Shown piece after piece: positions 7,349-32,812 of a stretch of DNA of 35,387 nt; positions within the stretch are counted from its first letter, which is position 1; each line of letters starts with the position of its first letter. Source of the stretch: an uncultured Methanosarcinales archaeon. GTDB taxonomy: Archaea; Nanobdellota; Nanobdellia; Woesearchaeales; CAYVYK01. A program made the translations under genes and the position numbers. The stretch covers positions 1-35,387 of the forward strand of contig CAYVYK010000017.1 of assembly GCA_964455675.1 (NCBI GenBank). The letters run 5' to 3'. The notes beneath the pieces are model-generated. The model was not told the DNA's origin, did no database searches, and saw only the letters and a program-made list of their open reading frames with translations.

Positions 7349-7392
7349 GCATGGCTTTTCTTTTTTCACTTTCATGCGATTGTAGTGTGAGC
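7349..7392 (+). repeat. 23S-trailer repeat, copy 1
   Basis: 7362-7392 matches 7961-7991 at 27/31 nt; 5' part gcatggctttt and tttcatgcg recur at 9453-9477. Confidence 0.8.
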
Positions 7393-7427
7393 TATATTTT
7401 TAAACAAAAATTGATTCTCGAGGATTC

Positions 7428-7934: not shown

Positions 7935-7960
7935 ATCACCTCCTGAAATAGTATTCCTTC

Positions 7961-7991
7961 TTTTTCACTTCCATGCGAAAGTAGCGTGAGC
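7961..7991 (+). repeat. 23S-trailer repeat, copy 2
   Basis: tttttcacttccatgcgaaagtagcgtgagc versus tttttcactttcatgcgattgtagtgtgagc. Confidence 0.8.
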
Positions 7992-8048
7992 ACCATCGTT
8001 TCAAACACTACAATGATCTGAAGATAAAAACAGAATACCCGGTATGAA

Positions 8049-8747: not shown

Positions 8748-8844
8748 ACGTCCCCAAAAGAGTGTTCATTCTATAAAAAGTGCCCTATTTTTTCGCACAA
8801 AATATACAGAAAATTCAATATACTTCTTCATCTCACTCCTTCCC

Positions 8845-9441
8845 ATGGGAAAAAAACTTCTAGCTCTCGCAGCATCCGCTGCTTTGCTTACTGGTTGTGG
8901 TCAAAGATCATATCTCTGGACCGATCCTTTGATTGGTATTGGCAGCGATCTTATTGGTGACTTCCTCTCGGAAGCTGTCTACGGGTGCCCTCCATGCAAT
9001 GGCGTGCTAAGGACTCAGGGCGCGAAGGGACTAGGCTTGTACACCCTCGGTATTCCGGATACGGACATTGCCACCGCAATCTGTGGTTTTGATTATTACC
9101 AAGGTCATGCTGGAGGATACGGAGACACACTAGAACTCATCGGCTGCAATGATCAGGTCTGGATGGAATGGTCGTATGGGAAGCTTGGCACCATTGCGGT
9201 GAATAGTGGATTCTCGGGACCAACGGAAGCGGGTGTCCGTATGGGTGATAGTCTTGACGCTTTGATCGCTGCGTACCCAAGCGCTCATCAAGTGGAATTC
9301 TCAAGCGAAAACCAACCAACAGTGTTCATCAGCGGTAACGCAAAGTTCAGCCTCAAGGACGGACTGGTCAACGGCATCGAGGTGAACTCGCATGAGTACG
9401 ATGAGAACGCTGGCGGTGTCGGGCCGTATGAATGGTGGTAG
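8845..9441 (+). CDS. Putative lipoprotein
   Basis: MGKK + hydrophobic stretch + lipobox LLTG-C; C-terminal TEAGVRMGDSLDALIAAYP. Confidence 0.7.
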   Translation: MGKKLLALAASAALLTGCGQRSYLWTDPLIGIGSDLIGDFLSEAVYGCPPCNGVLRTQGAKGLGLYTLGIPDTDIATAICGFDYYQGHAGGYGDTLELIGCNDQVWMEWSYGKLGTIAVNSGFSGPTEAGVRMGDSLDALIAAYPSAHQVEFSSENQPTVFISGNAKFSLKDGLVNGIEVNSHEYDENAGGVGPYEWW

Positions 9442-9452
9442 CATCGCAGACA

Positions 9453-9477
9453 GCATGGCTTTTTCTATTTTCATGCG
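9453..9477 (+). repeat. 23S-trailer repeat, degenerate copy 3
   Basis: gcatggctttttctattttcatgcg shares gcatggctttt (11 nt) and tttcatgcg (9 nt) with 7349-7378, with a short internal deletion. Confidence 0.55.
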
Positions 9478-9581
9478 GGCCGGAGATTGAACGCTACCAC
9501 TTGAACCTCTCTTTTGGCCCCCCGTGGTGACAACGCCGTCCACAATAGTTTTTATGAGAGAGTTGTTTCTAAGGCGCTGCG

Positions 9582-10349
9582 ATGAGCTTCATCATGGACT
9601 TGTACAATCTGGTGTGTAAGTTTGGTTTTGTTACGATGGTTTATGAGTGGGAGCAGGCGCTCTATATCGCGAATGGTAAAATTGTTACGAAGCCCGTGCG
9701 CTGGCAGGGCAAGGATCTTGAGGGGATTGTTACTGAAGAGCGGAAGGTCTTGAGAGAATCTGGCGGTTACTGGACATTCTTGAATCCATTTAGCGATCCA
9801 TCCCTTCCAGAGAATTGGAAGCGTTCGAAAGTTACGGGCCTGCCGCGCCACCCAAAGAGGTATGAGCGAAAAGTCCTCCTTGATCCTGGTATTCGGTGGT
9901 ATGTTCCGCTCTGCCATGACGTAGTCAAGGCGTCCCAGCAGGATGACGTGCTTGATCTTGGGTATGCGGCCGTTCCCACGAATGATGAGGATCCAAAGAC
10001 AGTGATCCTGTCGTGTAATCTGCATTACAAGGTCATGGATCTTGAGCGCGCGTGGCGCGTCGTGCGTGATTACAAGAATTCCGTGAAGAAGCATACCATT
10101 TCTATTCTTTCAGAGTGCGCGCTTGGCATGTCGTACAAGGATTGGGCGGTTCCGGCAAAAGTAAAGGAAGTGCGTGATAGGACCCTCAAGCGTCTGCGCG
10201 AAGTTGTCACTGAGGATTGGGGCTTGAAGATTTTCCAGATTTACCTGACGCATCACGTGCAGGGCATCGTCCAGTTCATTGCGTATGATGGCCAAGCTCC
10301 GCTCATTATCAATCCGAACGCGGATGGATCGTCGTATACACCCGACTGA
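9582..10349 (+). CDS. SPFH/band-7 domain protein
   Basis: VYEWEQALY..GK, LDPGIRWYVP, LHYKVMD.ERA, DWGLKI pattern of the SPFH family. Confidence 0.75.
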   Translation: MSFIMDLYNLVCKFGFVTMVYEWEQALYIANGKIVTKPVRWQGKDLEGIVTEERKVLRESGGYWTFLNPFSDPSLPENWKRSKVTGLPRHPKRYERKVLLDPGIRWYVPLCHDVVKASQQDDVLDLGYAAVPTNDEDPKTVILSCNLHYKVMDLERAWRVVRDYKNSVKKHTISILSECALGMSYKDWAVPAKVKEVRDRTLKRLREVVTEDWGLKIFQIYLTHHVQGIVQFIAYDGQAPLIINPNADGSSYTPD

Positions 10350-19359: not shown

Positions 19360-19445
19360 GCGGTGTTCTTTCATCGTTGCCGTAATAAACCTATCGGTAC
19401 ATAGTTCTATGTTCAGTGTATTCACGTGGACGCTAAAAAATAATA

Positions 19446-19615
19446 CTAGCGGGGAATACGAGACACCTGCCGTTCAGATGGGCTGATGGTTCCCCAGCCC
19501 CTTCTGGAACTGCTCGCGTTCTGGCACACCACCTGGTTGTGATCCTAAATTCAGTACTTGCCCTGTCCGTCGATCGTTGTGTGGAGGGGACAGGGCTCGC
19601 CGAAGGCTCGCAATA
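19446..19615. ncRNA. Candidate structured non-coding element (unassigned)
   Basis: GC-rich island between A/T tracts; stems gccctgtcc/ggacagggc (9 bp), gggctg/cagccc extended by ttcaga/tctgga; no protein-like ORF. Confidence 0.4.
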
Positions 19616-19637
19616 ATTTTCTATTTTTTTAGAGAGT

Positions 19638-19796
19638 CTCATGTTGACAGGGCGTGCCGTAAAGAAGACTCTAGACCATGGTAGCAAGGTCGTCATGCCA
19701 AAGTTGGCAACTAGCACCATGGGATGGTACGCCCGCGTGAAGGATAACCAAGGGAACATTATCGGGATATTTGAGTCAACAGGTCTATTACCCTAA
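19638..19796 (+). pseudogene. Truncated VOC/glyoxalase-family gene (C-terminal half)
   Basis: Reads ..VKKTLDHGSKVVMPKLATSTMGWYARVKDNQGNIIGIFES; in-frame TAA at 19614-19616; upstream HVDRA lies in another frame. Confidence 0.7.
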
Positions 19797-19834
19797 CCGA
19801 CATCTTTTTATGCGGTATCGGAATCAGAGGTATC

Positions 19835-20383
19835 ATGGGCCTCTTATCAGTTGTGCTAGGATCACTAGACGAGACCGCAGTAGCGAAAGCGCTTGGACCG
19901 CATGATGATGCAAGAAACAATTATCGTTTGCAGAGCGTTATGGTCGAGGATCCAGTGACTATTCAGCGTATCGTGAATGACTATTACGCTCATCACATGC
20001 GGGCAGCACCGGTCGTCAATCCTGGTGTTCAGGATGGCGTTGATCTTGTATCCCGCCTGTACGATCCGCACGATCCTGCGCACGGTCTTCGTGTTGCGAT
20101 TTCCAATGGCCAGCGTGGGAAGATGTATGAGATGCTAAACCATATGTGTGAGTATCTAAAAACTCGAGGCGAGGAGGAGTACGTGGAAAGTATGTTAAGA
20201 ACTCATGTGAAGACTCCGCAGGACCAGGCTGCAATCGTTCGGGAAATTTTCGAGATCAAGGAATTGGTTCCTCATTATGCGGATCCTTCGAGGCCTCAAG
20301 ATTACGTGGCTGATTGGAAGAAGCTTGTTCTTGGATTATCCCTCTGGCGTCGGGAGACCTCAAGGATATTCAGGTCATTATAA
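19835..20383 (+). CDS. Hypothetical protein
   Basis: 182-aa helical ORF with gaggt SD and upstream tttttat TATA. Confidence 0.7.
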   Translation: MGLLSVVLGSLDETAVAKALGPHDDARNNYRLQSVMVEDPVTIQRIVNDYYAHHMRAAPVVNPGVQDGVDLVSRLYDPHDPAHGLRVAISNGQRGKMYEMLNHMCEYLKTRGEEEYVESMLRTHVKTPQDQAAIVREIFEIKELVPHYADPSRPQDYVADWKKLVLGLSLWRRETSRIFRSL

Positions 20384-20421
20384 CTGATAATTTTATATAT
20401 CCAATTACCCGAGACCGTCGT

Positions 20422-20676
20422 GTGCCTTCACTCCATGATCTTCTGCAGGAAATCGAAAGGATCAAACAGCGCAACTTGCGCGTCGAAGCTGACAAGGCGT
20501 GGGAGACGAGTTGGTTGCGCAAGAGTGCAATTGCCATTCTCACCTATTTTGTGGTCGTGATTTTCTTCTTGACTGCTGGACTTCCAAGGCCTTTCACTAA
20601 TGCTATCATCCCTGCGCTTGCATTCATCCTTTCTACGCTTACGCTCGATTTGTTGAAGCGTAGGATGTATACGTAA
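20422..20676 (+). CDS. Small conserved membrane protein
   Basis: GTG start MPSLHDLL about 22 nt after ttttatatat; RNLRVEADKAWETSWLRK followed by two TM helices. Confidence 0.75.
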   Translation: MPSLHDLLQEIERIKQRNLRVEADKAWETSWLRKSAIAILTYFVVVIFFLTAGLPRPFTNAIIPALAFILSTLTLDLLKRRMYT

Positions 20677-20701
20677 GAATATACCCCTATGGGTTGAAAT
20701 A

Positions 20702-21358
20702 TTATCTTGATGGGTACTGTTTCTGCTTTCGTGCAGTAACAACAAAGAGAACGCTCTCCCTACCTTTACTCTTCTCCTTCCTGAGACTTTCGAACTTAAC
20801 AATACGGAGCGCTGCGAGTTCCAGCCGTAGCTCTCCTTCAGAAAAAAAGTGGTAGAGCCTGTTTTGGTCCACATAAGTATTTTCGCCTTGCTTGATCCAC
20901 GAATCGCGAGGGTAGCTAGAATCCTCCCTGCTGAGAGCGGTCAGGAAGAGATATCCTCCCTCATTCAAGCTGTTTTGTACATTCCTGACGAGAACTTTTC
21001 TTTCCTCTGTTGTGAGACAATGGTAAGAATTTATGCATACGATCGCGTCCATTCCTTTGGCTCGGAATTTGGTCATACTACGATTGAAGAATGTGCATTT
21101 CGGATACTTTTTTTTGGCCCATTGTACTGCCTCTGCTGAGAAATCAACGCCTGTCACATTATGCCCAAGATTCGTGAGGATAGCTGAGTATTTTCCATTG
21201 CCACAGCCGAGATCAAGAATCTTTGCACCGCTTGGAAGAATTCTTGAGAATGATACTACCTTTCTTTTGAGCGCCTCATACACCCTGCCATGTTCCCCTT
21301 TTTGGAAATAAGCGTCCCAACCCTTGATTCTTTCCGTTGTGCTTTTACCCTCTTCCAT
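20702..21358 (-). CDS. Class I SAM-dependent methyltransferase
   Basis: Start MEEGKST (21358); ILDLGCGNG, VTGVDFS, LNEGGYLFL. Confidence 0.88.
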   Translation of the reverse strand: MEEGKSTTERIKGWDAYFQKGEHGRVYEALKRKVVSFSRILPSGAKILDLGCGNGKYSAILTNLGHNVTGVDFSAEAVQWAKKKYPKCTFFNRSMTKFRAKGMDAIVCINSYHCLTTEERKVLVRNVQNSLNEGGYLFLTALSREDSSYPRDSWIKQGENTYVDQNRLYHFFSEGELRLELAALRIVKFESLRKEKSKGRESVLFVVTARKQKQYPSR

Positions 21359-21380
21359 AAGTGTTGTTACTGCGAGGGGT

Positions 21381-21400
21381 ATAAGTTTATAAACTTTTTT
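21381..21400. promoter_or_regulatory. Bidirectional TATA region between methyltransferase and radical-SAM operon
   Basis: Palindromic aagtttataaactt, about 20-27 nt from both divergent ATGs (21358 and 21415). Confidence 0.65.
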
Positions 21401-21414
21401 GATTTTCCCATCGT

Positions 21415-22899
21415 ATGGCGCGTGTTGTATTGGTGAATCCACAGCTTCCTGCCAGACCGCGTGGTTCCTCAGGTGGATTTCTCGATCAAATTCTCGCGAT
21501 AGAAAAAGGCGTAATTGACAGTCATCTCTTTCGGACATTTGCGAAGCCTCACTATACCTCACTTGGAATTCAGAAGACCTTCCACGAGCATTCATCTAAT
21601 ACCGCGTCTTTGGGACTGCTCTCAATGGCCGCAGTGTTACAAAAGGATGGTCACCACGTGGTATACTACGAGGATAAAGGAGAGTTCACGGATGAGTTCA
21701 AGAATCATGTTATGAATGCAGACGTTGTGGGAGTTACTGGAATTTGCACTAATTGGCAAAGAGCCAACGACATCAGTAAGCAAGTAAAAATATTGAACCC
21801 CAAGGTGCTCACAATCATCGGGGGGCCGCATGCCACCTACTCTCCGAACAATCCCCTTCTGGATAATCCTGCTTTAGATTGCGTGTGCAAAGGGTATGGT
21901 GAGGAAGTCTTAAGGCGTGTCGCCCAGGATCCATTCAATAAAGAAAACCTCCATACAATTCCAGGTCTTGATGTTCGTGAAGAGGGGGCTATCCGTTTGG
22001 GATCTCCGCCCATGCCGGTTGACATGAGGTCTCTCCCGCCACCCTTATATTCTCTCGTGCGAGATCCAAATACGCAAATCTATCTGCAATTCAGTCGTGG
22101 GTGCGAACGCTCTTGTGGATTCTGCTGCGAATGGGAACGTGAACAACATAAAAGTGCTATTGGCATACAAGAGGATCTCGAAGCACTGGAGAAGGTGAAG
22201 CAGCGCAACCTTGTGTTCATTGTTGACAGCAATTTCTTTGGGAGCCAAGAGAAGCTGGCGTTCTTTCGAGAAGCTGTGGTTGGAACGACAAACTTCTTCA
22301 CCGTACAAACTCGAATAACTACATTAGACGCAAATGTGGAGCGCTACTGCCAGGAGATGAAAGTTGCAAATCAGTTCATCGGTATTGAGAACCTTTCCGA
22401 TGAAGTATTGGCAGCAGTCGGGAAGGGGTACACCTGGTCTGATATCCAGAGAGTGCTCGCTCAAGTAGGCAGGGCTGCCAAACTGCCGCTGTATCGTACA
22501 AATTTTATCCAAGGCTTGCCTGGAGAAACAACTGAGGAAGCGAATGTGAACCTCGTCCGACGAAAAAAAATTATGAGTGAAGGACTTATTGTGTATGTGA
22601 ACGACAGTCTGTTTGTTCCAACCCCCGGCTCTCCCATTTTTTGCCACCCTGAGAGGTATAACATTCGGTTGAAGAAAGGATTCACTGTGACAGCACGAAA
22701 CGAATTTCCACAGTATGAGTATGTCGGTCATAATCGACGAACTCCCTTAGAAATCTTCTTGCATCATCTTGACATGCGAAGGTTATGTAATGAACAGCTG
22801 ATGCAACGTTACAATCTTGAATGGGTTCGAGATAGAACCATGGAACTGCTAAACAAAGGGGAACCAATTCCGGATTCTCTCGACCTTTACAGGTGCTAA
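21415..22899 (+). CDS. Cobalamin-binding radical SAM protein
   Basis: B12 domain (SLGLLSMAAVL, DVVGVTG, IIGGPHAT, KGYGE); RGCERSCGFC; GIEN..D..L; FIQGLPGET. Confidence 0.9.
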   Translation: MARVVLVNPQLPARPRGSSGGFLDQILAIEKGVIDSHLFRTFAKPHYTSLGIQKTFHEHSSNTASLGLLSMAAVLQKDGHHVVYYEDKGEFTDEFKNHVMNADVVGVTGICTNWQRANDISKQVKILNPKVLTIIGGPHATYSPNNPLLDNPALDCVCKGYGEEVLRRVAQDPFNKENLHTIPGLDVREEGAIRLGSPPMPVDMRSLPPPLYSLVRDPNTQIYLQFSRGCERSCGFCCEWEREQHKSAIGIQEDLEALEKVKQRNLVFIVDSNFFGSQEKLAFFREAVVGTTNFFTVQTRITTLDANVERYCQEMKVANQFIGIENLSDEVLAAVGKGYTWSDIQRVLAQVGRAAKLPLYRTNFIQGLPGETTEEANVNLVRRKKIMSEGLIVYVNDSLFVPTPGSPIFCHPERYNIRLKKGFTVTARNEFPQYEYVGHNRRTPLEIFLHHLDMRRLCNEQLMQRYNLEWVRDRTMELLNKGEPIPDSLDLYRC

Positions 22900-22900
22900 G

Positions 22901-23356
22901 ATGCCAATCACAGATCTCATTGTCCTAGAGTATAGAAGAAGTGTGCAAGAGTCCATACTCTCGAGATCCGGAAGGGAGCCGGAATACTTGGACTTCTTCC
23001 TGACTGAGGTGGAGCACCATTTTGATGAACTCGAGGAACTTAAGGCAAACAGGGATCCTCATTTCTATGCAGAACTGATTGACCTCGGTTACCTGGCATG
23101 CATTGTGTGCACCCTAACAGGGAATCCTTTCCAACCTCCGGAAGAAAGTGGTGATAGTTTTCCCATGCGATTGGCAGCTATACGAAAACAGTATCATAAC
23201 TCGGTTATCCAGCGTGGAAACGCAGATACTGAATTCTCCAAATTCATGGGTTTAGTTTTCGGCGCTGTTGAAGCCGAACAAGAATACGCACCTATCGAAC
23301 TGGTTGCGAAGAGGGCTGAGAAAATTCAGACCAAAATGAGGGAGGCGACAAGATGA
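22901..23356 (+). CDS. Hypothetical all-alpha protein, MazG/NTP-pyrophosphatase-like acidic motif
   Basis: EVEHHFDELEEL ... YAELIDLGYL resembles the ExxE...ExxD signature. Confidence 0.5.
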   Translation: MPITDLIVLEYRRSVQESILSRSGREPEYLDFFLTEVEHHFDELEELKANRDPHFYAELIDLGYLACIVCTLTGNPFQPPEESGDSFPMRLAAIRKQYHNSVIQRGNADTEFSKFMGLVFGAVEAEQEYAPIELVAKRAEKIQTKMREATR

Positions 23357-24894
23357 TAAGCCTTACAAAATTATGGGGGGATTTTCAGTATGTGGATGTT
23401 GGTAATTCCCCGACAGTAACAAGAAGACTATTCATGCAGCGACTGAGCGATCCGGATTGTAGAGAACGAGATCTCTTCATCGCATTAAACAGCCTTTCTG
23501 GTAGTATCGATATTCTGTCTGAACCGGAGGGTGTCGCCCTGGAACTGTTGCGTGGCGGTTTGACTACTCACCTAGACAGCGCAATGCAGAGAGAACTCTC
23601 AAAGCGAGGATACATATTTCCATCTCGTGCAGTGGAAGAACAGGTATATGCCGAGACATTACGGCGCGCCATCGACGCGCGGTTTACTGATGACCAGATT
23701 CTTCCTTTTTTCTCATTTGACACTACTTGTGGAATGGCATGCGAATACTGCTTTCAAAAAAGAGGAGAGGAGTCAAAACTGGACTTGGAAGTGAGCCGAA
23801 TGGACGAGGAGTCTCTGCGTTCCGCATTCCGTGCGCTCGACAATATACAGGAGTACTACGGAAAAACCTCCAAGTGGGCTGTCGGATTTGGTGGTGAACC
23901 TCTTAAAGGGAATCTAACAGAGATTAACACCTTGTTTATGAGTCTTGCACATGAACGTGGCATTCCAATTACCTATTTCTCAAATCTTGCCATGACAAGC
24001 CAAGAATTGCGGGACGTCTTGAAAAAAAACGCCGGTCAGTTGCACTTCATTGAGACCACATTGGATGGACCACCTGCAGTTCATAATGCGCTGCGGATGC
24101 TTGATGAACCTTTTCAAAGAACTGAGCGCACGATCACAGAATTGCTCAAGGCAGGTGTCCCGATCACGGTGCGTACAAATGTCAACCAGGAGAATCTTGC
24201 GGGAATACCTGAATTAGCGGAAGCTTTCGAGCGTAACGGATGGTTTGGTTTACCTAACTTTAAATCAGTAGTATCTCGGATTACCGATAGGCATCACGAC
24301 GGTAGCAAAATATTTCGCGAAGATGATGCAATGAGTGCATGGCTGGCATTAAAGGATCGTTATCCTGTTGTTCGAAAAATGAATGATTATAACATCGCAT
24401 ACGGATTGTTTAACCTTATGTTAGCATTAGGGATGAGATCCGTCGTTGACAAGGTTGATTTTCGGGTGGACACTTCACCCGTGGTCAGGCACTGTCCTAC
24501 AGATACTGGGCTTGAGTTTGTGTTTACAGGAAAACCTCACAACGGAATATATACATGTGCTGAGTGTGCGGGAATGCCAAAATACCGAATTGGAACTCAT
24601 TTTCCCGATCTTGTAATTGATCCCGCGCAGGCATCAAAGTGGGGGAACGCAACCTACATTGGCCTTCGCAGAGATATCCTTTCTCTTGAGCCCTGCTGGG
24701 ATTGTATCGGTGCAACACAGTGCGGTGGTGATTGTTCTCTGGAAGCGATTGCGGAATATGGTTCAGCAAGCAAGGTGTACTGCAAAGACGTTCCGTCAGT
24801 CATTAAGAGGTTTCTTGAGCACGAGCAGGGAAGGATATATCTAAGATGCCGAGAACTCATTAAAGAGTCTGAGGAGTATGACCGTCTTACATAA
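23353..24894 (+). CDS. Radical SAM/SPASM domain protein with N-terminal extension
   Basis: CGMACEYC, FGGEP, TTLDG; SPASM C..GIYTC..IG..CWDC....CGGDC..YC. Confidence 0.9.
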   Translation: MISLTKLWGDFQYVDVGNSPTVTRRLFMQRLSDPDCRERDLFIALNSLSGSIDILSEPEGVALELLRGGLTTHLDSAMQRELSKRGYIFPSRAVEEQVYAETLRRAIDARFTDDQILPFFSFDTTCGMACEYCFQKRGEESKLDLEVSRMDEESLRSAFRALDNIQEYYGKTSKWAVGFGGEPLKGNLTEINTLFMSLAHERGIPITYFSNLAMTSQELRDVLKKNAGQLHFIETTLDGPPAVHNALRMLDEPFQRTERTITELLKAGVPITVRTNVNQENLAGIPELAEAFERNGWFGLPNFKSVVSRITDRHHDGSKIFREDDAMSAWLALKDRYPVVRKMNDYNIAYGLFNLMLALGMRSVVDKVDFRVDTSPVVRHCPTDTGLEFVFTGKPHNGIYTCAECAGMPKYRIGTHFPDLVIDPAQASKWGNATYIGLRRDILSLEPCWDCIGATQCGGDCSLEAIAEYGSASKVYCKDVPSVIKRFLEHEQGRIYLRCRELIKESEEYDRLT

Positions 24895-25522
24895 TCTCAT
24901 TGCCGAGACAGAAAGAATATTTGACGACGTTTATTCCGTTCTACCCTCTCTTGGTAGTGAAGATGCTGTGGCAGAATATGTGTTGCACGTGATACGGTCA
25001 AGGGGTTTTCAACCATCTTTTAATCCATTTATTGCGTCTGGTGAGCATTCAACACATATCCATCCTGATTTTGAATCTGGGCCAATACAGCAAGGTTTTT
25101 TATTGGTGGATATTGGTATTTTTGCGGACGGGTACAACACTGACCTAACAAGGATGTTTTACTGCGGATGTCCATCTGAAGAAGAGCGAAGACATTTTGC
25201 CCTGGTTGAGTCTCTGATGGGATATGCGATGTCATCGGTACATGATAATTGCGTTTTCAGCGAAGTGGACACAGTTGTTGCTAGTATGGTGACGGAGGGT
25301 AAATACGTGATGGGCAGGCTTGGGCACGGGATAGGAAGGGAATTGCACCAATCTCCTTCGGTACGAGGTATAGACAGGATTATGGAAGGTCAAGTTTTCA
25401 CGCTTGAACCTGCACTTTATTTCAGCAACTACGGAATCCGGATAGAAAATATGCTTGCTCTGCAAAATCATGTTCCAGAACTTCTTTCACGATCCACATT
25501 GTCCCTGAGGAATGTACCATGA
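24878..25522 (+). CDS. M24 (Xaa-Pro/Met aminopeptidase-type) peptidase, catalytic domain only
   Basis: Metal ligands LVDIG, TDLTR, LGHGIG, TLEP, RIEN; no N-terminal creatinase domain. Confidence 0.85.
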   Translation: MTVLHNLIAETERIFDDVYSVLPSLGSEDAVAEYVLHVIRSRGFQPSFNPFIASGEHSTHIHPDFESGPIQQGFLLVDIGIFADGYNTDLTRMFYCGCPSEEERRHFALVESLMGYAMSSVHDNCVFSEVDTVVASMVTEGKYVMGRLGHGIGRELHQSPSVRGIDRIMEGQVFTLEPALYFSNYGIRIENMLALQNHVPELLSRSTLSLRNVP

Positions 25523-26907
25523 TCAATAGACCAAGAACCCTGGATGAAGCGCTTGGGATACTAGGACTTGGGAGTTATTCTGGGATCATCAAGAAACTTG
25601 ATTGTGTTTCTGAGAAACCCAGCATCCATGGAGAGGGAACAACCGGAAATCACCTGAGGCTGCTCTATGATAACCTTCCAGAAATTGTTGATGAATGGTT
25701 GATAACAGTCTCACTATTGCATGATCTTGGCAAATGTCATACACTCCCGCCTAATCATGAGGGTCATGAACAATCTTCGTCTCTTCTGGCGGGTTCTTTG
25801 CCGGAAGTTTATCCGGATCGTGAGAAAATAATCTGGATTATCGAAAACCATGGTGTTATTCTGAAGGATCCCGAAAAAATACGTGAGAATCCACACTATC
25901 CTGATTGCCTGCTCTTTCACTATTTTGATTCGATCTCCATGAATCCCCCCCGGATTGATAATTACGAGCGCCTTGCAGCAATTCTTCGAATGGAATCACC
26001 TTGCTCGACAGTGGCCATACATCTGACATCCACTTGCAATCTCGAGTGTGAGCACTGCTATGCCCCAGATGTGTCCATGGATGATATCAGTCTCGAGCAC
26101 ATTTCTGGGATCCTAAGGGATCTTTGTATTCTCGGTAGGCCTAAGGTTGTGCTTTTTGGAGGAGAACCATTTTTACGTCAAGACCTATCTCAAATTGTGC
26201 ATCTCTGCAAATCCTACGGATTACTCGCAGAGGTAGTTACAAACGGGACACTTGCAGATCGAAAGTCTCTTGAGGGCCTCAGGGATGCTGGATTACAAGA
26301 TCTTTGTATAAGTATTGACGGCACGAAGGAAACCCATGACAAAGTGCGGGGTAGTGGCACATACAACGCAGCGATGACCGCGTTACGTGAAGCAAGACTG
26401 TGTGGGTATAATCTCCGTGTGAATACCGTTGTTCGCCAGAGCAATAAAGAGGTTATTCCTGACTTAATACGGGAAGTCGCACCCCTTACTGACATTCATA
26501 AACTTCTGTATTTCACGCCGTTCGGTCGAGGGGAATGGATGGAATGGATTCCTCCAGAAGAATGGACATCACTTATTCATTTATATGCCTCCACAGAGCA
26601 CCAGGAGAAATTGCGAGTGCAGAATCCTTATGATACATCAACTCGATCGTGTAGCTTTGAAAATCCTGTCATTCTTTCCAATGGTCGAGTGTATCCTTGT
26701 GTGCTATTCCTGAACTCACCATATTCTTGCGGCAATGTTCTTAACGAAAGATTCCTCGACATTTGGAGAAGACAGCCTCCGAGGGAGGTCCCTCATTGTC
26801 GTGGCTACTCATTCATTCTGGAAGGGTCACCCAATATCCATCCAGAGGAGTATATGAGGATAATTTCAAAAATCGGATGCCCATTAGTCTGTCCAGAAGA
26901 GCGTTAA
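25519..26907 (+). CDS. HD domain-radical SAM (SPASM/twitch) fusion protein
   Basis: HD part: GNHL..LLHDLGK..GHE..IENH..FDS; radical SAM: CNLECEHC, FGGEP, VTNG, ISIDG; C-terminal C..NGRVYPC..GNV..IW. Confidence 0.85.
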   Translation: MINRPRTLDEALGILGLGSYSGIIKKLDCVSEKPSIHGEGTTGNHLRLLYDNLPEIVDEWLITVSLLHDLGKCHTLPPNHEGHEQSSSLLAGSLPEVYPDREKIIWIIENHGVILKDPEKIRENPHYPDCLLFHYFDSISMNPPRIDNYERLAAILRMESPCSTVAIHLTSTCNLECEHCYAPDVSMDDISLEHISGILRDLCILGRPKVVLFGGEPFLRQDLSQIVHLCKSYGLLAEVVTNGTLADRKSLEGLRDAGLQDLCISIDGTKETHDKVRGSGTYNAAMTALREARLCGYNLRVNTVVRQSNKEVIPDLIREVAPLTDIHKLLYFTPFGRGEWMEWIPPEEWTSLIHLYASTEHQEKLRVQNPYDTSTRSCSFENPVILSNGRVYPCVLFLNSPYSCGNVLNERFLDIWRRQPPREVPHCRGYSFILEGSPNIHPEEYMRIISKIGCPLVCPEER

Positions 26908-26993
26908 TTTGATTCACTCTCCATCTATTCCTCCTATTGATTTCCCCGGCATCTTTATATACCTCAGGATCCAGTAACTGTCGAGGTGATGTC

Positions 26994-27206
26994 ATGACAT
27001 GTTCTAACGTGATGTTGACCCTTGGGGCCATCTTGATCTTCTTGTTTGTGGTGTGGCCTGGCGTTGGTGGTATGGCAACGAAATGGGTCGTAGGTATTGC
27101 GTGCCTTGCGATTGTGCTGATCGCCTGGACGGGCGTCAAGTGCAGCTATTGCGAGAAGTGCGTGACGACGGCTACGCCCGAGATGAAGCCTAAAAAGAAG
27201 AAGTAG
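26994..27206 (+). CDS. Small two-helix membrane protein with CxxC and Lys-rich tail
   Basis: SD gaggtga before ATG 26994; own TATA (tttatata); ends KCSYCEKC..KPKKKK. Confidence 0.7.
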   Translation: MTCSNVMLTLGAILIFLFVVWPGVGGMATKWVVGIACLAIVLIAWTGVKCSYCEKCVTTATPEMKPKKKK

Positions 27207-27340
27207 TTACTGGTGCCAGATCTCTGATATTTCCACTTTTGGTAGCGCCGCGTAGATTGCTTCCTCTGCCATCATGATGAGGCAGAGAACCATTTTCCAC
27301 GTCGATTACGTTTAAATAACCGGTTTGTTTCCGATGTTGG

Positions 27341-27832
27341 ATGGATGTGTTTATCATCATCCGGGGTCCTGCTGCGTCAGGGAAAACCACAGTAGCGAGG
27401 GCGCTCGCGAAGCAGCTGAACGCCTCGTATTTCTCGTTTGATGACGTCATGCGTGAAAATGGCCTTGACAAGATTGAGGGTGATGGAATCAGCGCACAGA
27501 ACTTTGTGCGGGCAAATGAGATCGTGCTTCCTCTTCTTCGCAAAGTTGAGGGCGTCGTGATTCTTGACGGCTGTTTTTATCGGAAGGAGCAGATGGATCA
27601 TCTGCTATCTCGCTTGCCATTGCAGGGGATTATCATCGACCTTAAGGTTTCCCTGAAGGATTGCTTATCAAGGAATAAGGCAAGGCTCTCTCCGATGACT
27701 GACGAGAATATTCGGGCGGTCTTCCGATTGGTGCAGAGACATTCATTTGGTGTTGAAATCCCCTCATCAGGAAGGACTGTTGATGATGTTGTCCATGATA
27801 TTCTTACGAGAATTCCGTCTGGACGCTCCTGA
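27341..27832 (+). CDS. P-loop kinase (AAA_33/nucleotide-kinase-like)
   Basis: IIRGPAASGKTT, VILDG, CLSRN..R lid. Confidence 0.85.
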   Translation: MDVFIIIRGPAASGKTTVARALAKQLNASYFSFDDVMRENGLDKIEGDGISAQNFVRANEIVLPLLRKVEGVVILDGCFYRKEQMDHLLSRLPLQGIIIDLKVSLKDCLSRNKARLSPMTDENIRAVFRLVQRHSFGVEIPSSGRTVDDVVHDILTRIPSGRS

Positions 27833-27837
27833 AAATA

Positions 27838-27978
27838 TTATCCCCCTGTTGGGCAGTAGGTGCTCCTTGGGTCGTGGTGCTTCATTTCTCCAAAGAAGAG
27901 CACTCTTCCGAGGTACTGTGAGAGTGATGCCGTGACTGCTTACGTATCATCAATATCGCAGGCAATTCTTGGCTTCAT
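27838..27978 (-). pseudogene. Remnant of a HAD 5'(3')-nucleotidase-like gene
   Basis: Reads MKPRIACDIDDT*AVTASL..FFGEMKHHD; motif I DxDxT is followed by TAA where Leu is expected; TATA (aggtatatatt) about 24 nt upstream. Confidence 0.55.
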
Positions 27979-28052
27979 GCCTGAGGTGAATACCCTTTTC
28001 AATATATACCTTATTGCTAACATTTTTATCGTCTACCGCATTCGCTTTTGAT

Positions 28053-29099
28053 ATGCCAAAAAAGATTCTCGTTGTCGAGGACGATCCTGATTATTTGATT
28101 GCCCTTGAGCGAACGCTTGGTCAGAAGTATGATGTGGATACTGTCAAGGATGGCAACGCCGCTGTTGCTGCTCTTGAAAAACCATACGACCTTCTCGTGA
28201 TGGATATCATGCTTCCTCAGAAGTCGGGTTTTCTCGTTCTTGAAAAACTGCGGGAGCACGTCCCGAGATCAAGGCCGCCGTACGTCATTCTGATCACGGG
28301 CAATCAAGGTGCAAGGCATCGGCAGTACGGCCAATCTCTTGGTGCTCACGGGTATGTGAACAAGCCGTTCCGTATGGATTGGATGGCAGGTCTTGTGGAC
28401 AAATTCTTGGATCACGAACTTTCTGAGTCCGAACTCGAACGATTGTTCCGCTTATCCCAAACACCTGATCGTCAGCCAATTACCGAAAAAGAGGCACCCG
28501 TCGCTCTCAACTCTCTTGATGCCGAGCTTGATGCGTTTGACGTGCTCGTCCAAAGCGCTCATCTTGATGACTGCCGCATGCTGCCGCGCTGGATGCGCTT
28601 GACTCCTTACATTCCTGCTGGCGGGAAAAGCTCGGTTGCACTTTCATTGCAGTCTGGTCAGGAGCTAAAGAAATGCGGCGCTGGAGATCCTCCCGAGCAT
28701 TGCGTACGCTATGTTACAGATGGCTTGCAGTTCACGCACGGTATCATTTTTCATGGGCACTACTACGTTGGAGAGCATATCTCGCTTGAGGGAGCGGTCA
28801 AGGCGGAAATAGTTGCGTTCCATCGCTTCATGGCCCCTCTTACTCCTTCAGAGATCAACGGTTTTGCGGTCGGCATCCATTGGAAGAAAAGCCGCTTGAG
28901 TCCGATAGAACTTCCTCTCTCGACTGATTTTCTACACACCCTGCGGGATGGTGAGATTGTATTTACTCCTGACACGTCCTTGACAAAGTCAAACTATGTC
29001 GATATCCTGAATAATGCGCTTGGTTCTGCGAATGAGTACATCCATAGGATTGCGGCTTCCATTGGCGAAAAACCTGCCTGCTTCCGCATTCCCAAATAG
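28053..29099 (+). CDS. Response-regulator receiver domain fused to an unknown C-terminal domain
   Basis: ILVVEDD, DLLVMDIMLP, ILITG, YVNKPF; start MPKKIL at 28053. Confidence 0.85.
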   Translation: MPKKILVVEDDPDYLIALERTLGQKYDVDTVKDGNAAVAALEKPYDLLVMDIMLPQKSGFLVLEKLREHVPRSRPPYVILITGNQGARHRQYGQSLGAHGYVNKPFRMDWMAGLVDKFLDHELSESELERLFRLSQTPDRQPITEKEAPVALNSLDAELDAFDVLVQSAHLDDCRMLPRWMRLTPYIPAGGKSSVALSLQSGQELKKCGAGDPPEHCVRYVTDGLQFTHGIIFHGHYYVGEHISLEGAVKAEIVAFHRFMAPLTPSEINGFAVGIHWKKSRLSPIELPLSTDFLHTLRDGEIVFTPDTSLTKSNYVDILNNALGSANEYIHRIAASIGEKPACFRIPK

Positions 29100-29132: not shown

Positions 29133-29657
29133 CTACATTCCCTGTCCTTTGATTCTCTTCACGATTGCATCACGGATCTCTTCCGCGTGCATGATATCAA
29201 CTGCGGGGAGGTACCCTTCGCTGTGGTGTCGCTTCTTGCGCTGGACGAATCCTGATTGTCCTGCTGTTTCGATCTCGATGCTCGAGAATCCCATGATCCT
29301 TGCGATGACTCCGCGGTTGATGTCAACGTTCTGTATGCGCTCGTAAGGTATCGAGATATACTTTTTCCAAACGATTCCTTTCTCGATCTTGATGCATTCT
29401 TCCGTGATGTCATAGAGCCAGAAGCGGTATGCGAGCCTTGCGTAGATCTCCCCAATGATGATGATAACAAGCGCTATCACGAGAAGTGTGACGACCGTTG
29501 ACATGATGATTCCCTGCATCAATGCATCCGGAATCTTTTCCCGTAATGCATTGAACACGTCAACCGTGAAGTAGAACATAAAGATAGTTATTCCGATGAG
29601 CGGTGAGTACGCTCGAAGGCGGAAGAGCCATCTTGCTCCGGGGTGTAGCTCCTTCAT
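29133..29657 (-). CDS. Membrane protein with bacterial PH domain (YdbS-like)
   Basis: LHP, two TM helices, IPYERIQNVDINRG..ARIMG..I.IETAG. Confidence 0.85.
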   Translation of the reverse strand: MKELHPGARWLFRLRAYSPLIGITIFMFYFTVDVFNALREKIPDALMQGIIMSTVVTLLVIALVIIIIGEIYARLAYRFWLYDITEECIKIEKGIVWKKYISIPYERIQNVDINRGVIARIMGFSSIEIETAGQSGFVQRKKRHHSEGYLPAVDIMHAEEIRDAIVKRIKGQGM

Positions 29658-30130
29658 GTTCTCTTGCCCGTGATCTTTTGCATTAATAATCCCCGAATTT
29701 GTTCGGCTTCCTCGACGCCTACCGCTGGAATCTGTCCTTCCGCATGCGGCTGCGCTGAGTACCCGGCAGTTTGTATCATGATGCTTGAGAATCCTGCGAT
29801 TCTCGCGATGATTCCCCGGTGCACATCCACGTTCTGTATTCTCGCATAGGGGATTGTGCTGTAGCGCTTCCAGATGATGCCGCGCTCAAGGCGAACTCCT
29901 TCAGCTGTTAATTCGTAGAACCATCGGTTGTATGTCATCTGCGCGAAGATCTCCGCGCCGACGATAATAATGACGAGAAGAATAATCAAGAGTGTTAGGC
30001 CGATCGCCCATGATTTTAGGACTGCTGCTGCTCCAATGATGGCAAAGCTGCCAAATATCAATACAAGAATCCCAAGGACGTATCCGCCGATGCGGAACTG
30101 CCATTTTGCTCCAGGATGAAGTTTGTTCAT
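29654..30130 (-). CDS. Membrane protein with bacterial PH domain (YdbS-like), paralog
   Basis: LHPGAKW, IPYARIQNVDVHRGIIARIAG..IQTAG; ATGA-coupled to the next gene. Confidence 0.85.
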   Translation of the reverse strand: MNKLHPGAKWQFRIGGYVLGILVLIFGSFAIIGAAAVLKSWAIGLTLLIILLVIIIVGAEIFAQMTYNRWFYELTAEGVRLERGIIWKRYSTIPYARIQNVDVHRGIIARIAGFSSIMIQTAGYSAQPHAEGQIPAVGVEEAEQIRGLLMQKITGKRT

Positions 30131-30226
30131 AGATTCATTCCTTGAATTGTGGATATTTAAACATTGTGATCAATTCACCTTGGATGTCCAATAAGCCTTA
30201 TAATCCGCGCGTGATTCATCTTCTCG

Positions 30227-30961
30227 ATGGAATTGCTGCATGCAGTGCTCTTGTCGGTCATACAGGCCATCACGGAATGGCTTCCTGTTTCGAGTAGCGG
30301 CCATCTTGCGATCGTGCAGCACGTTATTGGCGTTCAGGACGTCGCGTTTGACGTGTTTTTGCATTTCGCGTCAATTCTAGCTGTTGTTGTGGTATTCTGG
30401 AGGGATATTGTGCATGCGCTGCAGGACGTTCCTTATCTTGTGAAGCTTGTGATTGCGATGATTCCTATTGCACTCGTCGGTTTGGTGTTCATGTCAGCGA
30501 TCGAAAGGGTGTTTGATAGCCTGTTCCTCGTGGGCGTGTTCTTCATCGCTTCAGGAATTATTGTTCTCCTGACGAGATTTGCTCGACAAAAGACCGGACG
30601 CGTGACGATTCTTGATTCGATCATCATCGGCCTTTTGCAGTGCGCTGCCATTCTTCCTGGCGTCTCGCGCTCTGGCACAACGATCAGTGCCGGTTTATTC
30701 CTTGGCCTCACGAAGGATGCCGCGATCAAGTTCTCATTCCTCATGGCAGTCCCCCTCATTCTTGGCGCGAGCATTCTCAAGGCTCCTATGCTTGTTACAT
30801 CAGGACTATCCTTCTATACAGTCGCCGTCTCGTTTGCTGTATCGTTTCTTGTGAGCGTTCTCGCGATTAAGTTCCTCCTTCGTGTTATCCGCCATGGGGG
30901 CTTTCATTGGTTTGGCGTGTACAACCTCTGCGTTGGTATCGTTCTGCTGCTCGTAGCATAA
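30227..30961 (+). CDS. uppP: Undecaprenyl-diphosphate phosphatase (BacA/UppP family)
   Basis: QAITEWLPVSSSGHL and PGVSRSGTTI signature motifs. Confidence 0.93.
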   Translation: MELLHAVLLSVIQAITEWLPVSSSGHLAIVQHVIGVQDVAFDVFLHFASILAVVVVFWRDIVHALQDVPYLVKLVIAMIPIALVGLVFMSAIERVFDSLFLVGVFFIASGIIVLLTRFARQKTGRVTILDSIIIGLLQCAAILPGVSRSGTTISAGLFLGLTKDAAIKFSFLMAVPLILGASILKAPMLVTSGLSFYTVAVSFAVSFLVSVLAIKFLLRVIRHGGFHWFGVYNLCVGIVLLLVA

Positions 30962-30994
30962 GGTTTATGAACTATCTCCTTCGCTTGAGGTATC

Positions 30995-31336
30995 ATGCGT
31001 AGGCTTTTGACCGCTCTGCTTTCGTTGTTGACGATTCTTGCGCTTATTGGCGCGTTTGTTGACGCCGGAGAGTATCATCAGTATATCTCGGGCGACCTGG
31101 TTCACTTTCTCGTGCTTTTTGTTCTGACTTTCATTGCTGTGCTTCTTGCGTTTCATCATAATTTCAAGCATCCCTACGGCGCTAGTTTCGTCTATGCCCT
31201 CGCGCTTGCCGGTATCATCGAGCTTGTCCAGTTCTTGCTTCCCTACCGCTCGCCAAAATGGAGCAATCTTCTCGCTGGTGTTGCTGGCGCGGTTCTTTCG
31301 CTCGTCATTGCGCGTCTCGCACGGAAAGTCTTATAA
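30995..31336 (+). CDS. VanZ-family membrane protein
   Basis: DLVHF..F ... IELVQFLLPYR...NL.A...GA. Confidence 0.8.
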   Translation: MRRLLTALLSLLTILALIGAFVDAGEYHQYISGDLVHFLVLFVLTFIAVLLAFHHNFKHPYGASFVYALALAGIIELVQFLLPYRSPKWSNLLAGVAGAVLSLVIARLARKVL

Positions 31337-31357
31337 ATCGTGCATGGCGTACGTTCT

Positions 31358-32812
31358 ATGATGGAAGAGGAGCTCGAGCTGTCTGATTATTGGAACATTG
31401 TGAAGAACCAGTGGAAACTGATCGCGCTTGTTCTGGTCGTCGTGCTCGCTATTGCCGGTATATACTCGTATCTTGCGTCTCCCGTGTATGAGGCGCGGAC
31501 TCTTGTTGTCGTCACGAATCAGGATTACTCATCGCTCATCCTTTCCGGAATTTCCCTTCCTCGAATTGACATCACGACCGAAACGGAGATTATCAGGAGC
31601 CAGGCGGTTCTTGGCGTAGTTCTCAAGGCGGCGAAGGCAAAGTATGATGTTTCCGTTGAGCCTGTGCGTGATTCGAGCGCGATCGAGATCATCGTGCATG
31701 GCGGAACTCCCGATGGCGTGCAGAAGGTGGCGAACGCGATCGCGCTGCGCTATGTGAATTACAGTATCGAAGCGCGAAAGGCTGACGCGGTTGCTGTCAC
31801 TTCTTTTATGACTGGCCAGATTGTTTCTCTTGAGGAGGAGATTGATATGATTAATCTTGAGATCCTTGAGATGGACCATAATAAGTCTCTCGACGCTGAG
31901 TACGCCTTGCAGACCTTGACATCCACTCTCTCGGCCAAGGAAAAGCTCCATTCCTATCTTTTGAACCGTCGTGAGGAGATCGGCATCTTCGCCCAGCAGT
32001 CGCAGGGGAATGTGCGTATTGTTGAGTACGCCGAAGCTCCGGTCTGGCCGGTCCGCCCGAATCTTGTGCTCAATCTTGCTGTGGGTATTGTTCTTGGCAT
32101 CTTTGCCGGCGTTGCTCTTGCGTTCATGCGTGAGTACGGCAAGAATGCGATCCAGCGTGTTTCTGACGCGGAAGCGTTCGGGACAGTCCTAGGCACTCTT
32201 CCTCATGCGAAGGGAAAAGGCCTGTTTCAATCATCCGCCCCCCATAGTGTGTTTTCCGAGAAAATCCGTCTCTTGCAGACTCATCTCGTGTTTGCGTTGA
32301 ATGATCAGTATGTGAAGGTCCTTGCGGTCTGCTCTCCTGAGCAAAAGGATGGCAAGACGACCGTTGCTGCGAACCTTGCGCACTCCCTTGCGCTGCACGA
32401 TGTTGAAGTCCTCCTGATTGACGCGAACCTGCGTGATGGTCCTATTTTTGGTCATAAGGGTCCTGGGCTTTCTGAGTACTTGCAGGGAGAAGCCGAGGCT
32501 GACAGCATTGTTTCAGATCATCATGGTATCCCGTTTATTTCTTCAAAAGCTGTTGAGCGCCCGATTGAACTGATTGTTTCTCCGAGGATGAAATCTCTCT
32601 TTTCAAAACTCGCAAAGGAGTACAGTATCATCATCGTGGACACTCCTTCCCTTGAGTTTGCGGAAGGCGCCCTCATCGCGTCGCAGTGCGATGGCGCGCT
32701 GATCGTTCTTGCGCAAGGGAAAACGTCCAAGGACGCGTCTGATAAGGCGAAGCGCACGTTGCACCGCGTCAAGGCAAGGATTATTGGCACGGTCCTTAAC
32801 TTTGCGCGGTAG
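31358..32812 (+). CDS. Wzc-like polysaccharide co-polymerase / BY-kinase
   Basis: Wzz-like N-terminus (PVYEART), coiled coil, PVRP + TM, SEKIRLLQTHL, Walker A KDGKTT, IDANLR, Walker B IVDTP, IGTVLN. Confidence 0.88.
   Translation: MMEEELELSDYWNIVKNQWKLIALVLVVVLAIAGIYSYLASPVYEARTLVVVTNQDYSSLILSGISLPRIDITTETEIIRSQAVLGVVLKAAKAKYDVSVEPVRDSSAIEIIVHGGTPDGVQKVANAIALRYVNYSIEARKADAVAVTSFMTGQIVSLEEEIDMINLEILEMDHNKSLDAEYALQTLTSTLSAKEKLHSYLLNRREEIGIFAQQSQGNVRIVEYAEAPVWPVRPNLVLNLAVGIVLGIFAGVALAFMREYGKNAIQRVSDAEAFGTVLGTLPHAKGKGLFQSSAPHSVFSEKIRLLQTHLVFALNDQYVKVLAVCSPEQKDGKTTVAANLAHSLALHDVEVLLIDANLRDGPIFGHKGPGLSEYLQGEAEADSIVSDHHGIPFISSKAVERPIELIVSPRMKSLFSKLAKEYSIIIVDTPSLEFAEGALIASQCDGALIVLAQGKTSKDASDKAKRTLHRVKARIIGTVLNFAR

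Follow-up and report, generated by a model that had tools for sequence, protein, structure and literature searches.

A six-gene radical SAM cassette in an uncultured archaeon shares an enzyme pair with bacterial gene clusters

Gene organization of the cassette

Contig CAYVYK010000017.1 (GenBank assembly GCA_964455675.1) derives from an uncultured Methanosarcinales archaeon that GTDB places in the Woesearchaeales, and its positions 1 to 35,387 are the stretch of DNA analysed here, called the window below. Within the window, an operon of five genes on the forward strand and a divergently oriented methyltransferase gene (Table 1) form what we consider to be a genuine specialised-metabolism cassette, in which three classes of radical S-adenosylmethionine (SAM) enzyme are combined with two nucleotide-hydrolase-like modules. 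Two of these enzymes, designated rSAM-A and rSAM-B, have relatives that stand side by side in five bacterial loci, and the phosphohydrolases that accompany this pair lead us to prefer, tentatively, a phosphorylated, nucleotide-type substrate for the pathway. With six genes in 6.2 kb, the cassette is small enough for realistic heterologous expression.

An initial annotation, made from the letters and their open reading frames (ORFs), had described five tightly coupled co-directional genes. The ORF listing and a direct reading of the junctions agree with it in arrangement and in coordinates: from upstream to downstream the genes are joined by a 1-nt gap at 22900, an ATGA overlap at 23353, a 17-nt overlap (24878-24894) and a second ATGA overlap at 25519. 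The longest ORF of the methyltransferase gene extends from 20702 to 21595 on the reverse strand; we place its start at the ATG at 21358, because the form starting at 21595 would overlap the B12 enzyme gene by 181 nt, and the shorter form keeps the whole methyltransferase domain. This leaves a divergent spacer of 56 nt. It holds the palindrome GTTTATAAAC, about 25 nt from the forward ATG (21415) and about 31 nt from the reverse ATG (21358), so that the divergent methyltransferase and the single palindrome between the two starts, as annotated initially, are confirmed. From its position one may reasonably infer that GTTTATAAAC is an archaeal TATA element used in both directions, with a leaderless transcript on either side. 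A promoter and terminator scan gave counts at or below the shuffled expectation, its model being that of bacterial sigma-70, which is not applicable to archaea. Rfam yielded no match at E<=1 over positions 19400-28100, and therefore no cobalamin or SAM riboswitch at the cassette.

Table 1. Features of the archaeal cassette and positions of the related bacterial cassettes
Feature	Sequence	Position	Strand	Basis
Class I SAM-dependent methyltransferase, 218 aa	Window	20702..21358	-	Pfam; choice of start
Perfect 10-nt palindrome, candidate shared archaeal TATA element	Window	21385..21394		Direct sequence reading
B12-binding-domain radical SAM enzyme, class B type, 494 aa	Window	21415..22899	+	Pfam; CX3CX2C
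p151, all-alpha protein of 151 aa, possible all-alpha NTP pyrophosphohydrolase fold	Window	22901..23356	+	Model; fold lead
rSAM-A, radical SAM enzyme of 513 aa, RRE-like N-terminal domain and SPASM-type C-terminal Cys motif	Window	23353..24894	+	Pfam; alignment; model
Stand-alone M24 'pita-bread' metallohydrolase, 214 aa	Window	24878..25522	+	Pfam; 1pv9 alignment
HD domain fused to rSAM-B (NirJ/AhbD-like, reduced SPASM/Twitch-like C-terminus)	Window	25519..26907	+	Pfam; homolog; Atlas
Bacterial cassette	L001	4763-14950		
Bacterial cassette	L002	1058-8877		
Bacterial cassette	L003	382-8990		
Bacterial cassette	L004	6809-16861		
Bacterial cassette	L005	7424-16070		
RRE, RiPP recognition element; RiPP, ribosomally synthesized peptide with post-translational modifications; NTP, nucleoside triphosphate.

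The G+C content of the block is 0.457, compared with 0.486 for the non-rRNA rest of the window, and no other 6.2-kb stretch downstream of the rRNA operon is as low. At third codon positions (GC3) the six genes range from 0.38 to 0.47, with the M24 gene at the block minimum of 0.381 and the methyltransferase gene at 0.466; values equally low occur in one of the 24 other ORFs, not all of which are verified genes, and the six genes differ from these ORFs with a one-sided Mann-Whitney p of 1.9e-4. Both profiles agree with the AT-richer block reported at first. The deviant stretch ends at about 26907, since the ORF directly downstream (26937-27206) has a GC3 of 0.644. Searching for repeats around the block gave short mismatched pairs only, with no att-like flanks, and there is no integrase at the borders. 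Lateral acquisition of the cassette is plausible because the block is both tightly coupled and compositionally deviant. Thus the 'acquired pathway' of the initial annotation gains plausibility from the composition but, with neither border repeats nor an integrase, it is not proven.

The core enzymes rSAM-A and rSAM-B

The only Pfam family matched by rSAM-A is Radical_SAM, with a score exactly at the cut-off (29.5). However, the motifs CX3CX2C and CX2CX5CX3C are invariant in all six sequences compared (the window protein and five close relatives), and by these two cysteine motifs rSAM-A is predicted to be a SPASM-type enzyme. The SPASM assignment given to this 513-aa protein at first therefore stands as far as the full cysteine motif is concerned, whereas the Pfam SPASM match falls on the HD fusion instead. 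In its N-terminal region rSAM-A hardly varies between archaea and bacteria (LTKLWG.F and NTLSG..D), and an AlphaFold2 model of mean pLDDT (predicted local distance difference test) 66 resolves its first 105 residues, at a pLDDT of 70-91, into four strands and three helices preceding the radical SAM barrel. The five close relatives, namely P0126 (55% identity) and P0127-P0130 (40-42%), are all that was found in 5.8 billion clusters. No match was obtained in 50,697 phage records, and plasmids contained only relatives of 23-25% identity, in 5 records.

The second core enzyme, rSAM-B, is the larger part of a fusion that Pfam resolves into Radical_SAM (63.7 bits), SPASM (31.6 bits; cut-off 21.5) and HD (17.7 bits, below the cut-off of 22). 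The HD part covers approximately residues 1-150. Its homolog P0007, the single other full-length fusion in the 5.8 billion clusters (41% identity), scores 31.6 bits for HD; the motifs H..HD..H..H..D are common to both proteins, and HD clusters make up 28 of the 30 Atlas neighbours of this part, at 0.90. The HD-radical SAM fusion recognized initially is thus upheld, the sub-cut-off HD score being backed by homolog, motifs and Atlas. From these motifs the domain is predicted to belong to the HD superfamily, with the phosphohydrolase and oxygenase subtypes not distinguished; it had no match among PDB sequences at E <= 1. The archaeal-type rSAM-B sequences contain only four invariant auxiliary cysteines, and this form may bind a single auxiliary cluster. 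The highest NCBIfam scores of rSAM-B, 93-116 bits, are to TIGR04053, AhbD, NirJ and AhbC, compared with cut-offs of 395-650 (TIGR04053, 116 vs 395). Among PDB sequences its best match is BlsE (2.8e-14), followed by others that include MoaA and viperins.

The other enzymes of the operon

The B12 enzyme contains the Pfam domains B12-binding (54.4 bits; cut-off 32.1) and Radical_SAM (37.4 bits; cut-off 29.5), and CX3CX2C is present in the translation. With the B12-binding domain at the N-terminus, followed by the radical SAM core, it is predicted to be a class B enzyme. Its best NCBIfam match is ApyD, at 75.4 against a cut-off of 750, and TokK is its best match among PDB sequences (4.3e-9), with three others. 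Close homologs in the 5.8 billion clusters are three: P0145 (50% identity), P0146 (41%; Beggiatoa sp. PS) and P0147 (39%). P0146 carries in its source the name Mg-protoporphyrin IX monomethyl ester oxidative cyclase subunit, which is probably an over-annotation, because the window protein scores 54 bits for BchE compared with a cut-off of 481.

The M24 protein scores 114.5 bits for Peptidase_M24 in Pfam, and 64 for the NCBIfam model PepQ, whose cut-off is 630. It aligns to residues 159-337 of the Pyrococcus prolidase 1pv9 (9e-22), without the N-terminal domain of prolidases, and conserves in this alignment all of the motifs vDiG, NtDlTR, GHGiG, lEP and RIEn, whose D, D, H, E and E we take to be the metal ligands. 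These five motif positions, in a predicted pita-bread catalytic domain, place it in the M24 family. The Pfam scores and the 1pv9 alignment thus sustain the earlier calls of a B12-radical SAM enzyme and of a stand-alone M24 peptidase. For the methyltransferase, Methyltransf_25 (62.1 bits) and Methyltransf_23 (61.2 bits) are the Pfam matches, and all NCBIfam matches are far under cut-off (best, 48.9 vs 155).

The remaining protein, p151, matches no Pfam family even at E<=1, and among 1.84 billion representatives only two true relatives were found (P0143 and P0144); a third candidate, P0142, was rejected as a spurious cadherin/RTX repeat protein. Its AlphaFold2 model (pLDDT 86.6) consists of six helices, on which E36, H39, H40, E43, H54, E58 and D61 are invariant. 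EXXE...EXXD is presumably the metal motif of MazG and the other all-alpha NTP pyrophosphohydrolases; in p151, E36, E43, E58 and D61 are invariant, whereas a strict EXXE would require a second E that varies. Against the PDB, all Foldseek matches have E >= 0.22, with a top TM of 0.43 to dimeric dUTPases, and against BFVD the top matches have E values of 0.01-0.1 and TMq of 0.5-0.68, with NTP-PPase, MazG or dUTPase names in eight of the top 50. Atlas neighbours at 0.75-0.77, which is lead level, belong to MazG, dUTPase_2 or dATP/dGTP-PPHyd families, and a p151 profile retrieved chance-level matches only (E >= 0.03) from PDB sequences. The 'MazG-like' label of the initial annotation is therefore matched by a weak resemblance in fold and features but by neither a Pfam family nor a significant fold match; we keep it as a consistent, sub-significant lead from the predicted fold.

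A shared pair in bacterial cassettes

The best matches of the HD fusion, rSAM-A and the B12 enzyme (P0007, P0126 and P0145) each lie on a contig of the same length, 44,152 bases, which suggests that at least half of the cassette exists there a second time. Scanning GTDB genomes with the rSAM-A alignment gave seven loci, five of which (L001-L005) contain a full-length relative. These five are from metagenome-assembled genomes assigned to an uncultured bacterium, Chlamydiota, Candidatus Endomicrobiellum, Clostridia and Alphaproteobacteria. Immediately after rSAM-A, each of the five encodes a SPASM radical SAM protein of 332-337 aa, the counterpart of rSAM-B, which is 28-34% identical to residues ~165-440 of the archaeal HD fusion; the identity between archaeal and bacterial rSAM-A is 35-42%. 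By tblastn, the five loci contain no match for the B12 enzyme, p151, the M24 protein or the methyltransferase. Since only two of the six genes recur in them, the six-gene set is conserved at most in one other contig. That homologs never co-occur in other genomes had been named initially as what would refute the reading, and this is not what is seen: the pair is adjacent in five of five loci, and three best matches lie on a contig of one and the same length.

The bacterial cassette comprises eight genes, encoding an MBL-fold plus HEAT protein (MBL-HEAT), rSAM-A, rSAM-B, a NUDIX hydrolase, a third radical SAM enzyme (rSAM-C), an FkbM methyltransferase, a PTP-type or HAD phosphatase and a fourth radical SAM enzyme (rSAM-D). 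MBL-HEAT, rSAM-C, FkbM and rSAM-D are present in all five loci. NUDIX is found in four, the fifth contig being short, and is fused to rSAM-C in L003; the PTP-type phosphatase is found in three and is replaced by a Cof-type HAD protein in L004, which also has two tandem copies of rSAM-A. Genes for a transposase, a relaxase, a serine recombinase and a DUF4143 ATPase adjoin the bacterial cassettes. None of the bacterial radical SAM enzymes reaches a curated NCBIfam cut-off, and the eight-gene cassette is apparently undescribed. A relationship between p151 and the MBL-HEAT protein was considered and rejected (profile-profile probability 0.3%).

Archaeal and bacterial cassettes thus have in common the rSAM-A/rSAM-B pair, adjacent in the bacterial versions, and the general composition of a phosphohydrolase, a methyltransferase and several radical SAM enzymes. 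They differ in that six of the eight bacterial genes are without a counterpart in the window and four of the six window genes are without one in the bacteria. In a maximum-likelihood tree with RiPP-like outgroups, the window sequence and P0126 (98/97) are sister to the bacterial clade (99/99) and not nested within it. From this position, as sister of the bacterial sequences as a whole, the tree gives no indication of a donor.

Substrate of the pathway

Neither the operon nor the gaps of 56 nt and 30 nt that flank it contain a plausible short ORF for a precursor peptide. Comparison of 1071 ORFs of 20-130 aa across the loci gave families that all lie inside a large gene, and none of these includes the window. 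The substrate of the pair is therefore probably not encoded in the cluster, because rSAM-A and rSAM-B are shared and no small ORF is; this fits a common metabolite. What does recur around the pair is phosphohydrolases, of four unrelated types: HD in the window, NUDIX in four of the five bacterial loci, PTP-type in three and Cof-type HAD in one, to which p151 may add a fifth. Twice, moreover, a phosphohydrolase is fused to a radical SAM enzyme, namely HD to rSAM-B (window and P0007) and NUDIX to rSAM-C (L003), and these two independent fusions are a concrete handle on the substrate class.

Because phosphohydrolases recur and fuse with the pair, because no precursor was found, and because the N-terminal domain of rSAM-A is almost invariant although only rSAM-B is shared with it, we favour, as a tentative reading, the radical tailoring of a phosphorylated, nucleotide-type substrate. 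Joint action of a phosphohydrolase and a radical SAM enzyme on nucleotides has precedents by analogy: the B12-radical SAM enzyme OxsB and the HD enzyme OxsA act jointly on a nucleotide (PMC9204698), and PolH, together with a phosphatase, takes part in forming octosyl acid (PMC5365060). BlsE, the best solved relative of rSAM-B, is itself nucleoside-modifying, although the match lies in the generic core of the predicted protein. The low G+C and GC3 of the block, like the mobile-element genes next to the bacterial cassettes, are in keeping with a pathway that is accessory and transferable. The initial annotation had left the product as a modified peptide, a peptidyl-nucleoside or a modified nucleotide; the nucleotide side is now favoured, whereas the peptide side is without a precursor.

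We infer the substrate class, each reaction and the order of steps as follows. The conserved heart, rSAM-A and rSAM-B, would perform one radical (hydrogen-abstraction) transformation after another on a small phosphorylated molecule of the nucleotide type. The phosphate state of this molecule would be set or removed, either ahead of the radical reactions or following them, by the HD domain and by p151 as a putative NTP-pyrophosphatase-like protein. The B12-radical SAM enzyme would methylate or rearrange an unactivated carbon, and the class I methyltransferase would put on an O- or N-methyl group. The M24 hydrolase would cleave an amide, either of an aminoacyl or peptidyl appendage or of an amidino-type bond.

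Several observations weigh against a nucleotide-type substrate. The closest structures to the rSAM-A model in Foldseek are the peptide maturases SuiB, CteB, TigE and SkfB (E ~1e-7, up to ~520 aligned columns, 12-18% identity), and the predicted topology together with this ranking points to the RRE-radical SAM-SPASM architecture of such enzymes; the best NCBIfam matches of rSAM-A, far under cut-off, are likewise RiPP maturases (CefB, 58 vs 600; TIGR04463). Its relatives on Bacillus plasmids, at 25% identity, adjoin a 54-aa ORF, and the M24 peptidase in the operon points to a peptide bond. No nucleotide-binding motif has been demonstrated in rSAM-A or rSAM-B, and the likeness of rSAM-B to BlsE, viperin and MoaA is confined to the generic radical SAM core. 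The PDB matches of the B12 enzyme at E <= 0.01 do not include OxsB, no p151 search returned a match at E <= 0.001 that would make it MazG-like, and the operon itself contains no transporter, kinase, or glycosyl or nucleotidyl transferase. A peptidyl-nucleotide hybrid would reconcile the peptide and nucleotide lines.

The main rival of the nucleotide-type substrate is a RiPP-like or protein-modifying pathway, which we regard as doubtful yet nearest to it in merit. Here rSAM-A would bind a ribosomal peptide or a protein through its RRE-like domain and cross-link it, with the precursor encoded elsewhere or missed; rSAM-B and the B12 enzyme would add C-C bonds or C-methyl groups, the methyltransferase would cap the product, and the M24 enzyme, with its metal-ligand motifs intact, would trim a leader or the N-terminus. 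Such a role agrees with the model of the rSAM-A N-terminus, in which a beta-sheet precedes three helices, with full-length Foldseek alignments (~500 columns) to CteB and TigE and SuiB ranked at the top, and with the best NCBIfam matches of three proteins, which besides CefB and TIGR04463 for rSAM-A are ApyD for the B12 enzyme and a daptide methyltransferase for the methyltransferase, all far sub-cut-off. A precedent for an RRE-SPASM enzyme that acts on a whole neighbouring protein is given in PMC13692751. The RRE itself gives a mixed result: the topology is RRE-like and RRE-bearing maturases are closest, yet none of the six rSAM-A family members matches the Pfam family PqqD, even at E <= 5, and the model has a mean pLDDT of only 66. 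A RiPP pathway, moreover, lacks its defining element, since neither the operon nor its flanking gaps yielded a precursor peptide, the five bacterial loci have no small ORF conserved among themselves and share none with the window, and no peptide gene is conserved with the near-invariant N-terminal region of rSAM-A. It also leaves unexplained why HD, NUDIX, PTP and HAD proteins travel or fuse with the radical SAM enzymes, and the operon is without a transporter.

The distant plasmid relatives of rSAM-A on the Bacillus side adjoin, besides the 54-aa ORF, a second radical SAM gene and ABC-type genes. In L008 (NC_020394.1, 148992-164395), from a Bacillus thuringiensis plasmid, the 54-aa ORF, two adjacent radical SAM genes whose products are 23-25% identical to rSAM-A and an ABC-type gene occupy positions 5267-9977, and by its gene content this region looks like an uncharacterised RiPP cluster.

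A bolder extension of the nucleotide-type reading, which we hold to be possible though rather unlikely as a whole, is that the rSAM-A/rSAM-B pair represents a new, horizontally mobile route, spread over archaea and at least five bacterial lineages, to a radical-tailored nucleotide or peptidyl-nucleotide not seen before, which would serve in symbiosis or in conflict between organisms. In it, the HD- and NUDIX-radical SAM fusions would be the first of their kind, with the hydrolase feeding or unloading the radical site.

An improbable alternative, which differs from tailoring of a nucleotide in biological role and not in chemistry, is a defence cassette in which a viperin-like reaction would convert a cellular nucleotide into a chain-terminating or toxic analogue while the HD and MazG-like proteins adjust or deplete nucleotide pools. 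The PADLOC pVip models match rSAM-B (81.3 bits, 1.8e-23) and its bacterial counterparts, but the NCBIfam viperin model scores 70.2 compared with a cut-off of 180, and the similarity is generic because models of MoaA, NirJ, AhbD and PqqE score as high or higher. A kinase encoded downstream of the operon, at 27341-27832, weakly matches the viperin-associated kinase VakA (4.1e-9); its GC3 of 0.53, however, is host-like and its gene is not coupled to the operon. The transposase, relaxase, serine recombinase and DUF4143 ATPase genes beside the bacterial cassettes, the patchy spread over five bacterial lineages plus archaea, the low GC3 of the block and the fold and feature neighbours of p151, which are mostly phage proteins, would also suit defence. 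On the other side, no known pVip system has anything near six to eight biosynthetic genes, with methyltransferases and a B12 enzyme among them, PADLOC has no match for p151, M24, MBL-HEAT, FkbM or PTP, and rSAM-A is missing from the phage records.

Divergent housekeeping, namely an alternative heme or heme d1 (AhbC/AhbD/NirJ), molybdopterin (MoaA), Tes/Grs tetraether lipid, methanopterin or tRNA modification pathway, is very improbable: the family matches of rSAM-B and the many homologs named 12,18-didecarboxysiroheme deacetylase speak for it, but all such matches are 3- to 7-fold under the curated cut-offs, close relatives are few (1 for the HD fusion, 5 for rSAM-A, 3 for the B12 enzyme and 2 for p151), the composition of the block is foreign, the window genes include no partner gene of those pathways, and the bacterial cousins adjoin mobile-element genes.

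Radical SAM cassettes are a main source of new enzyme chemistry and of nucleoside and peptide antibiotics. What the present analysis adds is the conserved pair of rSAM-A and rSAM-B, the mobile cassette that houses it in bacteria and its recurrent association with phosphohydrolases, and the core pair ties the archaeal cassette to a bacterial one that is equally undescribed.

Neighbouring genes in the window

The window is archaeal by its rRNA genes, which comprise the small subunit gene (2570-4044), a tRNA-Ala in the spacer and the large subunit gene (4437-7347). They form a linked 16S - tRNA-Ala(TGC) - 23S operon at 2570-7347 on the forward strand, and no 5S rRNA was detected within the window. 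Just past the 23S gene, at 7000-9000, lies a second stretch of low G+C content (0.43), which contains an ORF with an HNH endonuclease motif (8049-8747, reverse strand) and ORFs that match no family.

The small ORF at 26937-27206 (forward strand), 30 nt past the cassette operon, is predicted to contain two hydrophobic segments, carries the tail CSYCEKC...KKKK at its C-terminus and matches no Pfam family. It probably encodes a host membrane protein and lies outside the island. The kinase gene, on the same strand and 434 nt downstream of the operon, encodes a P-loop protein of the AAA_33/AAA_18 type. Further along, positions 29133-32812 contain two tandem bPH_2 genes followed by BacA (undecaprenyl-diphosphatase family), VanZ-like and Wzz/GNVR/P-loop chain-length-determinant-like genes, a cell-envelope neighbourhood of bacterial-type families in an archaeon.

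Comparison with known systems

The statement in the initial annotation that this gene combination is not a described system agrees with all of our comparisons. In NCBIfam every match of every cluster protein is far below its curated cut-off, PADLOC returned only generic radical SAM (pVip) and methyltransferase similarity, and the literature searched contained no paper describing the archaeal or the bacterial cassette.

The maturases SuiB, CteB, TigE and SkfB resemble rSAM-A in their three-part layout and in the motifs CX3CX2C and CX2CX5CX3C. In contrast to them, rSAM-A shares only 12-18% identity, has no PqqD match in Pfam and is not accompanied by a detectable precursor gene. NirJ, AhbC, AhbD, TIGR04053 and the cytosylglucuronate decarboxylase BlsE are the best family or PDB matches of both rSAM-B and its bacterial counterparts, but none of these enzymes carries the N-terminal HD domain of the archaeal protein.

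Prokaryotic viperins (pVip) are radical SAM enzymes acting on NTPs, and the window resembles their systems in a weak model similarity and a nearby kinase; it differs in being a multi-enzyme operon to which the kinase is not coupled. The cassette was considered and rejected as a prokaryotic viperin, since NF038283 stays below its cut-off (70.2 vs 180) and the pVip score of 81 bits is no better than those of many unrelated radical SAM families. Its identity as an oxetanocin-type system was likewise rejected, OxsB being absent from the PDB matches of the B12 enzyme at E <= 0.01 and the HD domain having no PDB sequence match at E <= 1. As in the oxetanocin pair OxsA/OxsB, an HD domain and a B12-domain radical SAM enzyme are encoded together, but in the window the HD domain is fused to a different, SPASM-type radical SAM enzyme, and two more radical SAM enzymes and an M24 hydrolase accompany it. 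Should its product be a nucleotide analogue, the cassette would be added to the few radical routes that lead to such compounds, among them viperin, oxetanocin and octosyl acid.

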